DNA from: Escherichia coli | GTDB lineage: Bacteria; Pseudomonadota; Gammaproteobacteria; Enterobacterales; Enterobacteriaceae | Assembly: GCF_003334785.1 (NCBI RefSeq) | Contig: NZ_QOWV01000010.1 | Length of the DNA: 64,000 bases | Strand: one strand, 5' to 3' | In this document: positions 42,812-44,852 of the stretch, piece by piece | How the letters are laid out: every line of letters starts with the position of its first letter | Position numbering within the stretch: position 1 is the stretch's first letter | Notes under the pieces: generated by a model | Database searches by the model: none | Told to the model about the DNA's origin: nothing | The model's input: only the letters and a program-made list of their open reading frames with translations | Program-made: the position numbers and the translations under genes

Positions 42812-43393
<582 letters not shown>

Positions 43394-43401
43394 TGATTTC
43401 T

Positions 43402-43432
43402 CGCGCGGGCAATCTTGCCCGCGCTTCTGCTC
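43402..43432 (+). terminator. Putative terminator downstream of ppiA
   Basis: gcgcgggcaa-tc-ttgcccgcgc hairpin followed by a T-rich tract. Confidence 0.45.
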
Positions 43433-43497
43433 TCCCGGCGTAACCCGGATTTGCCGCTTATACTTGTGGCAAATGGACACGTTCAGGGAGGCATCAA

Positions 43498-43665
43498 GTG
43501 AAGAAACTCACCGATAAGCAAAAGTCCCGTCTCTGGGAGCTTCAGCGTAATCGTAATTTTCAGGCCAGTCGCCGTCTTGAAGGCGTCGAGATGCCTTTAG
43601 TCACTCTTACTGCCGCAGAGGCTTTAGCGCGCCTTGAAGAGCTGAGGAGTCACTATGAGCGATAA
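43498..43665 (+). CDS. yhfG: Small protein YhfG (FicA-type antitoxin partner of Fic)
   Basis: 55-codon GTG-initiated ORF ([21 protein letters not shown]...SHYER) read directly from the sequence; overlaps the fic start by 11 nt. Confidence 0.7.
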
Positions 43666-44257
43666 ATTCGGCGAAGGGCGCGATCCGTATCTTTATCCAG
43701 GCCTTGATATCATGCGTAACCGGCTGAACATCCGCCAGCAGCAGCGGCTGGAACAGGCCGCTTACGAAATGACGGCGCTGCGTGCTGCGACCATTGAGCT
43801 TGGTCCGCTGGTGCGCGGTTTACCGCATTTGCGAACTATCCATCGCCAGCTGTATCAGGATATTTTCGACTGGGCAGGGCAACTGCGTGAAGTTGATATT
43901 TATCAGGGTGATACGCCGTTCTGCCACTTTGCTTATATCGAAAAAGAGGGCAATGCCCTGATGCAGGATCTGGAGGAAGAAGGTTATCTGGTTGGCCTGG
44001 AGAAAGCGAAGTTCGTCGAGCGGCTGGCGCATTACTATTGTGAAATCAACGTGCTGCATCCCTTCCGGGTGGGAAGTGGTCTGGCACAGCGGATCTTCTT
44101 CGAGCAACTGGCGATTCATGCCGGATATCAACTGAGCTGGCAGGGTATCGAAAAAGAGGCCTGGAATCAGGCAAATCAGAGTGGGGCAATGGGGGATCTC
44201 ACCGCACTGCAGATGATATTTAGCAAAGTGGTAAGCGAAGCCGGGGAATCTGAGTAA
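43655..44257 (+). CDS. fic: Fic-domain protein (FicT-type adenylyltransferase)
   Basis: 200 aa with a Fic fold; the active-site motif reads [12 protein letters not shown] at 44057..44092. Confidence 0.9.
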
Positions 44258-44288
44258 AATAGCGCGGTTCTTTTGTACCGGAGCCGCC

Positions 44289-44852
44289 ATGATCCTGCTT
44301 ATAGATAACTACGATTCTTTTACCTGGAACCTCTACCAGTACTTTTGTGAACTGGGGGCGGATGTGCTGGTTAAGCGCAACGATGCGTTGACGCTGGCGG
44401 ATATCGACGCCCTTAAACCACAAAAAATTGTCATCTCACCTGGCCCCTGTACGCCAGATGAAGCCGGGATCTCCCTTGACGTTATTCGCCACTATGCCGG
44501 GCGCTTGCCGATTCTTGGCGTCTGCCTCGGTCATCAGGCAATGGCGCAGGCATTTGGCGGTAAAGTTGTGCGCGCCGCAAAGGTCATGCACGGCAAAACC
44601 TCGCCGATTACACATAACGGTGAGGGCGTATTTCGGGGGCTGGCAAATCCACTTACCGTGACACGCTACCATTCGCTGGTGGTGGAACCTGACTCATTAC
44701 CAGCGTGCTTTGACGTGACGGCCTGGAGCGAAACCCGCGAGATTATGGGGATTCGCCATCGCCAGTGGGATCTGGAAGGTGTGCAGTTCCATCCAGAAAG
44801 TATTCTTAGCGAACAAGGACATCAACTGCTGGCTAATTTCCTGCATCGCTGA
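44289..44852 (+). CDS. pabA: Aminodeoxychorismate synthase component II (glutamine amidotransferase)
   Basis: 187 aa with the class I GATase catalytic Cys (GVCLGHQ). Confidence 0.95.

Follow-up and report, generated by a model that had tools for sequence, protein, structure and literature searches.

A probably domesticated, non-toxic Fic protein encoded by the yhfG-fic locus of Escherichia coli

What does the Fic protein of Escherichia coli do? Genetic work of the early 1980s defined the fic gene, and the mechanism and biochemical function of its product are still called elusive in a paper of 2026 (PMC13327609). We have analyzed the yhfG-fic locus in a stretch of 64,000 nucleotides of E. coli DNA (the window), where fic lies immediately behind a small overlapping gene, in the arrangement of a toxin-antitoxin pair, and where the active-site motif of the encoded protein departs from the canonical one. 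The question raised by this locus is whether it encodes a toxin with its antitoxin, a protein that no longer catalyzes any reaction, or an enzyme whose chemistry has changed. The features on which the analysis is based are as follows.

42821..43393, + strand: ppiA, encoding periplasmic peptidyl-prolyl isomerase A, syntenic neighbour on the 5' side (190-aa ORF)
43403..43424, + strand: G+C-rich 9-bp hairpin directly past the ppiA stop (RNA fold)
43452..43471, + strand: conserved promoter block TGCCGCTTATACTTGTGGCA, with the -10 hexamer TATACT at 43459..43464
43486..43491, + strand: Shine-Dalgarno sequence of yhfG, GGGAGG
43498..43665, + strand: yhfG (EcFicA), GTG start, 55 codons plus stop, a FicA-type partner protein
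43567..43584, + strand: inhibition motif of YhfG, S24-R-R-L-E28-G29, which fits [S/T]xxxE[G/N]
43644..43649, + strand: Shine-Dalgarno sequence of fic, GAGGAG, within yhfG
43655..44257, + strand: fic (EcFicT), ATG start, 200 codons plus stop, a class I Fic-domain protein
43817..43819, + strand: codon for Fic Gly55 (position from translation), site of the classical fic-1 (G55R) allele
44057..44092, + strand: degenerate FIC signature motif, Fic residues 135-146 (translation)
44289..44852, + strand: pabA, aminodeoxychorismate synthase component 2, 31 nt 3' of fic

Both yhfG and fic are genuine genes and not chance ORFs. The window is E. coli K-12-like and, over yhfG-fic, identical (100%) to E. coli genomes in which RefSeq annotates these genes as yhfG and fic; the locus was found, in one place, in 5426/5426 complete E. 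coli genomes searched. YhfG scored 126.9 bits against the NCBIfam equivalog NF007573 (cutoff 77) and Fic scored 430.3 bits against NF007672 (cutoff 181). The Pfam Fic accession PF02661 matches Fic residues 58-152 with E=1.5e-13, placing the protein in the Fic/DOC domain family, and Pfam YhfG (PF10832) is recorded on orthologues of YhfG. The locus is the same as that of the crystallised pair EcFicT/EcFicA (UniProt P20605/P0ADX5): the window Fic is matched over all 200 residues by PDB 5JFZ and 5JFF (E = 3.6e-134 and 4.6e-133, respectively), the chains of which differ from it only by engineered mutations, S2G and R27H. The allele in the window thus has R27 where the crystallised EcFicT construct has H27, and otherwise nothing of substance differs. 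Two other leads were rejected. Fic (YhfG gave no match) falls in the PADLOC candidate-system family PDC-S04, a match that amounts to generic Fic homology and was not taken to indicate a role in defence, and the "YhfG" mentioned in the literature as an RNA-binding protein is apparently a typographical error for YhgF.

An earlier sequence-only reading of this DNA had described a 55-codon, GTG-initiated yhfG that overlaps the start of fic by 11 nt, and the coordinates (43655..43665) and the translation agree with it. An overlap of 11 nt is likewise present in the called genes of Salmonella, Klebsiella and Leclercia. Since fic starts within yhfG and its Shine-Dalgarno sequence also lies inside that gene, translational coupling of the two is expected. 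The gene order at the locus is ppiA, yhfG, fic, pabA, argD. That reading had also placed the module in a ppiA-yhfG-fic-pabA string, to which it was said to be fused; the order is as described, although the module is better said to lie within a syntenic string of genes that is conserved. The terminator scan predicted none in the 31-nt gap between fic and pabA, and pabA is found directly 3' of fic in most of the syntenic loci.

The arrangement is that of class I FicTA modules, namely an operonic pair with a small upstream partner gene that carries an inhibition motif. The class I layout had been recognized from the sequence, but the SRRLEG inhibition motif of YhfG had been omitted. Both this motif and the degenerate active site were described by Stanger, Harms, Dehio & Schirmer (PLoS One 2016; PMC5033356), who co-crystallised YhfG and Fic as a tight 1:1 complex (5JFF/5JFZ) with an interface of 1641 A2, in which S24 and E28 of YhfG contact R146, the last arginine of the Fic motif. 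The class I architecture and fold are shared with VbhT/VbhA of Bartonella schoenbuchensis (PDB 3SHG, 3ZC7, 3ZCB), where a glutamate of the antitoxin clamps R2 as in YhfG-Fic, although VbhA consists of three helices and YhfG of two helices and a loop (PMC5033356). Unlike EcFicT, VbhT carries the canonical motif, and its AMPylation of gyrase and topoisomerase IV is proven (PMC5033356).

Compared with the canonical Fic motif, HxFx(D/E)GNGRxxR, translation of 44057..44092 confirms that the catalytic His is kept and that the acidic residue, the Asn and the first Arg (R1) are replaced by V139, S141 and L143, respectively; F137, G140, G142 and R146 are kept as well. A canonical motif in another register, which would have changed this picture, was absent from all six frames of a regular-expression scan of 43400..44400, and the one loose H.F..G.G match found there is the site just described. 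The motif region is present in 5424/5426 complete E. coli genomes, and the most divergent copy that was translated (93.6% nucleotide identity over 78 nt) encodes the identical 12 residues. An IS21-family insertion interrupts fic in one complete E. coli genome, and published fic knock-outs are viable (PMC5033356); that fic can be lost in these ways counts against the reading, preferred below, of an enzyme under selection.

The E. coli protein therefore lacks the canonical signature of an AMPylation-competent Fic protein (acidic Mg2+ ligand, Asn and both arginines). The suggestion, made from the sequence, that it may have altered or no adenylyltransferase activity fits published negative results. 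Neither auto- nor target-adenylylation by EcFicT could be demonstrated, even with the E28G mutant of YhfG (PMC5033356), and Lu et al. 2020 do not list EcFic among the Fic proteins that AMPylate GyrB or ParE (PMC7479194); we found no report of normal adenylylation by this protein, and neither another activity nor a cellular target has been reported for it. The negative AMPylation and toxicity data originate in Harms et al. 2015 (Cell Rep), cited here via Stanger 2016 (PMC5033356). The degenerate motif, the structure and the lack of AMPylation of E. coli Fic were already published in 2016, so that the observation is correct and not new: for the specialist, a degenerate active site in the protein that founded the Fic family is a published fact and adds nothing.

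In a conventional FicTA toxin-antitoxin system, Fic would be a growth-arresting AMP-transferase that acts on gyrase or topoisomerase IV, with YhfG as its labile antitoxin. This explanation is highly improbable for the E. coli pair and can be regarded as largely refuted, although the pair has the class I FicTA gene layout, inhibition motif and fold. A prediction of 2009 (PMC2701414) made YhfG-Fic a toxin-antitoxin pair, it is still so listed in some papers and annotations, and the fic-1 allele (G55R) gives a filamentation that depends on cAMP and heat (PMC5033356). Gly55 itself is invariant in 72/72 unfused syntenic orthologues. FicT toxins, too, reportedly cause filamentation (Harms et al. 2015). 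The main objection lies in the Mg2+-ligand and R1 positions, both of them non-canonical in E. coli Fic, and is best seen by comparison with Fic-1/AntF. This class I pair, from Pseudomonas bijieensis 2P24 (Chen et al., mLife 2026; PDB 8WT0), is closer to EcFicT than any other canonical relative with a solved structure (E = 2.2e-49, 39% identity). The two pairs align without gaps and share the same numbering, for the partner residues S24 and E28 as well as for the Fic positions H135, 139, 143 and R146. [quoted passage not shown] The failure to demonstrate adenylylation with YhfG E28G and the absence of EcFic among GyrB and ParE AMPylators point in the same direction, as does the score of 138.4 bits against the NCBIfam accession for the VbhT adenylyltransferase toxin (NF045983), well below its cutoff of 800.

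The distribution of the pair also differs from that of mobile toxin-antitoxin modules, in that it is strictly chromosomal, syntenic and vertically inherited between ppiA and pabA (Stanger et al. 2016, PMC5033356). The patchy distribution, variable context and carriage by plasmids and phages that mark toxin-antitoxin mobility were not seen for the yhfG-fic locus. EcFicT-like copies are chromosomal, and the EcFicT-like matches in plasmid and phage collections are to chromosome-sized or small unannotated records; relatives at <=48% identity are often on plasmids. Of the 84 related loci that were fetched, 78 have homologues of PpiA and YhfG next to the Fic match, with PpiA on the upstream side of the module. 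In most of these tsgA, pabA and argD are also present in the E. coli order.

An alignment of homologues, proposed along with the sequence-only reading, finds the degenerate motif to be lineage-specific, both in a census of homologue motifs and at the syntenic loci. The motif is degenerate in 120/120 close homologues, while the clusters at <=48% identity are almost all canonical. At the syntenic locus there are 72 unfused orthologues, for which residue statistics were taken from tblastn-anchored gene coordinates. The motif is canonical in 12 of these (Erwiniaceae, Chimaeribacter and Acerihabitans); the acidic residue is lost and R1 is kept in 6, the state seen in basal Enterobacteriaceae; and R1 is lost as well in the remaining 54, from the core Enterobacteriaceae. 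The related loci show that the motif decayed stepwise, and in a lineage-specific manner, at one fixed chromosomal locus, with the acidic residue lost first and R1 later.

Within the 54 R1-lost loci the changes follow a narrow pattern. Position 139 is always V, L, I or A, position 141 is S or N, and position 143 is L, M or I, and H135, P136, F137, R138, G140, G142 and R146 are invariant (54/54). The glycine anion nest and Asn132 of the adenine pocket are also invariant across these species-level loci, as are S24, L27 and E28 of YhfG. The consensus of the flap is nearly unchanged between the canonical and the degenerate syntenic clades. The dN/dS values of fic (0.03-0.12) lie in the same range as those of pabA (0.05-0.09), those of yhfG being 0.08-0.20; these values are approximate, as inter-genus dS is saturated. 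This independent reconstruction of a stepwise loss, in which the catalytic His and the YhfG Glu remain unchanged, is a modest addition to the published picture.

These observations bear on the view that Fic is a pseudoenzyme. A non-catalytic YhfG-Fic complex might bind a partner in stationary phase, for example a topoisomerase subunit as its ancestral target, or the DNA might be retained for expression signals of pabA. Several lines of evidence agree with this: AMPylation was not found by Stanger et al., and EcFic is not among the GyrB/ParE AMPylators of Lu et al. (PMC5033356; PMC7479194); two residues essential for AMPylation in Fic-1 (PMC13327609) are replaced; knock-outs and one natural IS disruption are tolerated; and fic and pabA lie close together with no predicted terminator between them. 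We nevertheless judge it unlikely. The invariance of His135 and of YhfG E28 is not required by binding alone, the dN/dS of fic indicates selection on the protein sequence beyond any embedded DNA signals, and the motif region is all but universal in the complete E. coli genomes. The more extreme form of this view, in which a decaying fic survives solely for the sake of pabA expression signals, is rejected on the dN/dS values together with the invariant catalytic residues.

We consider it likely that yhfG-fic is a domesticated, non-toxic descendant of a class I FicTA module, chromosomally fixed and vertically inherited, which has lost AMPylation and still encodes a selected enzyme. This judgement applies jointly to the identity of the module, the loss of AMPylation and the core proposal of an enzyme under selection, and to no single chemistry. 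The acidic Mg2+ ligand (139) and the beta-phosphate-binding arginine R1 (143) of Fic have given way to aliphatic residues, and S24 and E28 of YhfG clamp R146 of Fic in the crystallised heterodimer. Fic would still be an enzyme, with changed chemistry, rather than a decaying relic, because His135, the anion nest, Asn132, R146 and YhfG S24/E28 are invariant in the 54 loci and dN/dS is as in pabA. It is this conservation by itself that suggests the status of EcFicT as an enzyme.

The chemistry that we list first, although only tentatively, is that of an eraser without a writer function, in which the YhfG-Fic heterodimer would hydrolytically remove an AMP-type modification. His135 of Fic and Glu28 of YhfG would serve deAMPylation, the ability to add the modification would have been lost, and constitutive YhfG-Fic would free GyrB, ParE or similar proteins of AMP or of a related nucleotidyl group. 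This reading is suggested because V139 and L143 coincide with the Fic-1 positions whose alanine mutants are writer-dead and eraser-competent in the antitoxin complex. Only H135A and AntF E28G abolish deAMPylation in Fic-1/AntF (PMC13327609), and the residues required for that activity (Fic H135 and partner E28, with R146 and S24 for the complex) are all present in the window and invariant in 54/54 loci. In the class II Fic proteins FICD/HYPE and EfFic the inhibitory glutamate is also needed for deAMPylation (PMC13327609). The E. coli module differs from these in being made of two polypeptides and in having no acidic residue in its motif; in class II enzymes this residue binds the metal. The nearly unchanged flap consensus of the canonical and degenerate clades would count in favour of an eraser, whereas the restriction of positions 139 and 143 to aliphatic residues would count against it, since this is easier to reconcile with a newly selected hydrophobic pocket, meaning a novel donor substrate, than with a mere loss of function. 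An eraser also presupposes a writer. As this analysis came upon no Fic AMPylase endogenous to E. coli K-12, exogenous or non-Fic AMPylators would be needed. If the proposal is true, YhfG-Fic could repair, or immunise against, AMPylation by non-Fic AMPylases or by incoming FicT toxins borne by plasmids, phages or secretion systems. The eraser-only idea is an addition of this analysis, derived from the conservation pattern and the 2026 mutagenesis of the homologue, and it is testable.

Second among the chemistries we place the proposal of Stanger et al. that EcFicT is a transferase for a novel substrate, which is possible but far from probable. His135 would move a phosphate-containing group from a donor other than ATP to a target, and would do so when EcFicT is freed from YhfG or re-arranged relative to it; the E28-R146 clamp would keep YhfG a true inhibitor, and the aliphatic residues at 139 and 143 would belong to a new ligand pocket. 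An extended pocket near the motif is indeed lined by subgroup-specific residues, with the anion nest and the adenine pocket kept (PMC5033356), and positions 139 and 143 are held to their few aliphatic residues in 54/54 loci with no drift. There are also precedents for an altered Fic motif that goes with a different reaction, as AnkX is a phosphocholinase with CDP-choline as its donor and Doc is a kinase (PMC5033356); AnkX, however, binds its donor via R1 (PMC5033356), which EcFicT lacks. On the other hand, the ten years since 2016 have brought no report of a ligand or target and the mechanism is still described as elusive (PMC13327609), neither toxicity nor a regulated release of YhfG is known, and the flap consensus, being close to that of orthologues with a canonical motif, argues against the new target range that Stanger et al. 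inferred from flap positions.

A variant of the locus in Buttiauxella and Cedecea is a further addition of this analysis. Here yhfG and fic form a single-chain fusion through a deletion of ~160 nt, which joins the inhibitory helix of YhfG to the Fic core, and the fused gene is under purifying selection. The inhibitory helix comes to lie N-terminal to the Fic core, as in class II proteins, and the fusion looks like a natural conversion from class I to a class II-like form. In an AlphaFold2 model of the fused Buttiauxella protein the Fic core is mostly confident and the YhfG-derived residues 1-35 have pLDDT values of 27-49, likely because the N-termini of unfused Fic proteins were aligned to a non-homologous segment, so that docking of the helix is not readable from this model. 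If the module is an eraser, the fusion would represent a natural tethered form of the enzyme.

The ppiA-yhfG spacer contains a hairpin and a conserved promoter element. Directly past ppiA, the RNA fold of 43392..43460 has an energy of -26.8 kcal/mol (z = -2.96), and the hairpin at 43403..43424 is likely the ppiA terminator or a structure at the end of its transcript; the terminator scan did not call this hairpin because its T tract is weak. Downstream of it, the hexamer TATACT is the -10 element that PMC5650638 tabulates, after Utsumi 1993 and Tanaka 1995, for the fic promoter, a sigma-S-dependent promoter reported to be functional without a -35 element (PMC5650638), and yhfG-fic is listed as RpoS-dependent in O157:H7 (PMC2907692). 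A sigma-70 scan upstream of yhfG, which excludes sigma-S-type promoters without a -35 element, gave no promoter, and this fits a promoter that acts without one. TATACT is found within the ppiA-yhfG spacer in 73/78 syntenic loci, mostly 40-50 nt ahead of the yhfG start.

The yhfG and fic genes lie in the ppiA-yhfG-fic-pabA string and share 11 nt, which each gene reads in its own frame. The features discussed here are as follows.

43403..43424, perfect 9-bp G+C-rich hairpin after the ppiA stop
43452..43471, promoter block TGC(C/T)GCTTATACTTGTGGCA, placed by its conservation and by the reported sigma-S -10 element TATACT within it
43498..43665, + strand, yhfG, GTG start, 55 codons, with GGGAGG upstream at 43486..43491
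43655..44257, + strand, fic, ATG start, 200 codons, with GAGGAG at 43644..43649, within yhfG
44057..44092, + strand, Fic signature motif, Fic residues 135-146

Both ORFs are real genes. YhfG matches NCBIfam equivalog NF007573 with 126.9 bits (cutoff 77) and Fic matches NF007672 with 430.3 bits (cutoff 181); the Pfam Fic domain covers Fic residues 58-152 (E = 1.5e-13). The gene overlap suggests that the two are probably translationally coupled. Coordinates and translation agree with the sequence-only reading, which had described this arrangement and a degenerate Fic motif. Scanned by regex in all six frames, 43400..44400 contains no canonical HxFx(D/E)GNGRxxR and no second loose match, so that there is no alternative register in which a canonical motif exists.

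A search of solved structures with Fic identified PDB 5JFZ (E = 3.6e-134) and 5JFF (E = 4.6e-133), whose chains differ from this protein solely by the engineered S2G and R27H. These structures were solved by Stanger, Harms, Dehio and Schirmer (PLoS One 2016; PMC5033356), who renamed the genes ecficA and ecficT. In that work the YhfG inhibition motif SRRLEG is canonical, with S24 and E28 contacting R146, while the EcFicT motif is termed "somewhat degenerated": the first motif arginine (R1, position 143) is leucine, the acidic Mg2+ ligand (position 139) is hydrophobic, and about half of close EcFicT homologues carry Ser for the motif Asn. Neither auto- nor target adenylylation by EcFicT could be shown, YhfG E28G included (PMC5033356), and in the incubations of Lu et al. 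(2020) with labelled ATP plus GyrB or ParE from E. coli, EcFic was not among the reported modifiers (PMC7479194). The suggestion, made from sequence, of altered or no adenylyltransferase activity fits these negative results. Since the degenerate motif, the complex, the inhibition motif and the negative adenylylation are all published, both the earlier observation and its interpretation are correct but were already known in detail. What retains interest is the unsolved function, still called "elusive" in a June 2026 paper (PMC13327609), together with a testable eraser hypothesis.

Several E. coli genomes, C600 among them, contain 43400..44300 (901 nt) at 100% identity. The stretch matches all 5426 complete E. 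coli genomes, in 5424 over at least 80% of its length; the matching stretch is annotated as yhfG, fic and pabA. A 78-nt motif probe was likewise found in 5424 of the 5426, and the most divergent copy translated (93.6% nucleotide identity) encodes the same 12 motif residues. In one complete genome, E. coli MS 21-1 (locus L086, NZ_CP146670.1), fic is broken about 80 codons in, near window position 43895, by the IS21-family element ISEc10 (istA/istB), which shows that natural strains can lose fic. E. coli assemblies also contain sporadic in-frame fusions of YhfG to Fic, 233-252 aa long (P0001, P0274, P0279, P0277, P0005). These are joined at differing points within or close to the 11-nt overlap (window 43640..43665), which points to a separate frameshift or deletion in each; the events may be genuine or sequencing artefacts.

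Close EcFicT homologues were reported to be confined to Enterobacteriaceae, vertically inherited and placed between ppiA/B and pabA (PMC5033356). All 120 best database homologues (at least 79% identity) have V/I/L/F as the fifth motif residue, S/N (C in one) as the seventh and L/M/I as the ninth; among 50%-identity cluster representatives, proteins of at most 48% identity are almost all HPFR[ED]GNGR. We analyzed 84 loci, 80 from a search in which each GTDB species was represented by one genome and 4 from an exact protein look-up. PpiA and YhfG homologues flank the Fic match in 78, most of which also have tsgA, pabA and argD in E. coli order. The other six, outside Enterobacterales (Vibrio, Photobacterium, Marithrix, Halothiobacillus; ~45% identity), have the canonical motif and no synteny. 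Within the syntenic set, motif state tracks taxonomy, which bears out the lineage specificity that the sequence-only reading had proposed checking by alignment.

Motif states at the syntenic locus
Canonical, HPFR[ED]GNGRAQR: 12 loci; Pantoea, Mixta, Erwinia, Winslowiella, Chimaeribacter, Acerihabitans
Acidic residue lost, R1 kept, HPFR[IY]G[STN]GR: Franconibacter, Dryocola, Entomohabitans, one Enterobacter sp., an Enterobacteriaceae MAG, Rouxiella
R1 also lost, HPFR[VLIA]G[SN]G[LMI]: 54 loci; Escherichia, Salmonella, Citrobacter, Klebsiella, Raoultella, Enterobacter, Kosakonia, Atlantibacter, others

This distribution shows a stepwise decay in which the acidic residue was lost before R1. The decay came after the module had already become fixed at its chromosomal site.

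In all 54 loci that have lost R1, Fic N132, H135, P136, F137, R138, G140, G142 and R146 and YhfG S24, L27 and E28 are invariant. Among E. coli, Salmonella, Klebsiella and Leclercia, fic has a dN/dS of 0.03-0.12 and yhfG one of 0.08-0.20 (Nei-Gojobori; values approximate, as dS is saturated), with 0.05-0.09 for the neighbouring pabA and 0.04-0.08 for argD. The flap (about residues 79-100) has a nearly identical consensus in canonical and degenerate syntenic clades, which differ consistently outside the motif at only six positions. The invariance of His135 and E28 makes a pure pseudoenzyme, a Fic with no remaining catalysis, a less likely reading.

The closest solved canonical relative of EcFicT is Fic-1 of the Fic-1/AntF pair, which aligns without gaps at 39% identity and shares its residue numbers. 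AMPylation and toxicity disappear in Fic-1 E139A and R143A, but both mutants, when bound to AntF, still deAMPylate GyrB (Chen et al., mLife 2026, PMC13327609); only Fic-1 H135A and AntF E28G abolish deAMPylation (PMC13327609). EcFicT is naturally substituted at exactly these two writer-dead positions, 139 and 143, and with YhfG keeps all residues needed for the eraser reaction of Fic-1/AntF. This connection is absent from the discussion in PMC13327609 and was not found elsewhere in the literature. YhfG and Fic form a tight complex in which the ligands for Mg2+ and the ATP beta-phosphate are gone and AMPylation is not found; catalysis in some form probably persists. The 139/143 substitutions with retained eraser residues place a holoenzyme that removes AMP but cannot add it about level, by analogy, with the novel donor substrate proposed by Stanger et al. 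In favour of the eraser are the conservation of the flap and the unvarying glutamate of YhfG; its main weakness is that no endogenous writer is known. In favour of the novel donor is that positions 139 and 143 admit aliphatic residues only. YhfG-Fic was predicted in 2009 to be a toxin-antitoxin (TA) pair (PMC2701414); a conventional toxin is essentially excluded.

The fic promoter is a classical sigma-S promoter with -10 TATACT, reported active without a -35 element (PMC5650638), and yhfG-fic is listed among the RpoS-dependent genes of O157:H7 (PMC2907692). Of 78 related loci, 73 have TATACT between ppiA and yhfG, canonical-motif clades included. The whole promoter block is kept across Enterobacteriaceae, with close variants in Erwiniaceae, where the Fic motif is canonical. 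EcFicT-like sequences in plasmid and phage collections lie in chromosome-sized or small unannotated records, and relatives of at most 48% identity occur in 888 plasmid records. Invariant residues, low dN/dS, the conserved promoter block and chromosomal location together mark the module as a domesticated, selected and non-mobile descendant of a FicTA pair. An 11.3-kb Klebsiella oxytoca "plasmid" (H46, NZ_CP069919.1) contains yhfG-fic, with a Fic that matches the one from E. coli at 100% identity, and four PLSDB "plasmid" records (H47-H49, H52) are chromosome-sized (4.8-5.4 Mb); these look like misassignment or contamination and not like genuine movement of the pair.

A single ORF of ~200 aa fills the syntenic ppiA-pabA slot in four Buttiauxella species, Cedecea sulfonylureivorans, one metagenome-derived contig and locus L076.

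Fused ORFs, in the local coordinates of each locus
L067:2483-3085
L072, L073 and L075:2504-3106
L074:2390-2992
L076:2390-2989
L001:1011-1613

The N-terminus corresponds to YhfG residues 1 to ~33 and the remainder to Fic from about residue 35; SSRLD[IV] or SCRLDV replaces SRRLEG, and the Fic motif is HPFFVGSGRAQR. Aligned to the unfused locus of Dryocola, the fused genes show one deletion of ~160 nt, which also cancels the frame offset between the genes. Judged by dN/dS (0.05-0.15, YhfG-derived part included), the fused genes are under purifying selection. In effect, a class I pair seems to have been naturally converted to a class II-like single-chain protein; neither "Buttiauxella" nor "fusion" occurs in the main text of Stanger 2016 (PMC5033356). 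An AlphaFold2 model of the Buttiauxella protein was uninformative for the N-terminal segment. L076 (CACSKA010000004.1) is labelled Chryseobacterium sp. 18061 and has enterobacterial gene order, with tsgA, ppiA, pabA and argD products 78-90% identical to E. coli proteins; probably the species label is wrong or the assembly contaminated.

The flanks show further variation. The hairpin after ppiA (fold of 43392..43460, -26.8 kcal/mol, z = -2.96) has a counterpart of different sequence at the equivalent place in Buttiauxella. A pabA/argD homologue is absent from the available flank downstream of fic in L045, L048, L054 and L060 (Dryocola, Entomohabitans, Acerihabitans and an uncultured Pseudocitrobacter contig whose end lies shortly beyond fic), which suggests that downstream synteny is less fixed than the ppiA side; in Dryocola, fic is followed by a 389-aa ORF with a signal-peptide-like N-terminus. 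In Pseudescherichia vulneris (L044) an insert of ~840 nt, inferred from spacing also in L040, L042 and L026, separates fic from pabA. It holds two small overlapping minus-strand ORFs of 128 and 117 aa (L044:3147-3834, - strand), which look like a putative toxin and HTH antitoxin, a candidate mobile TA pair.
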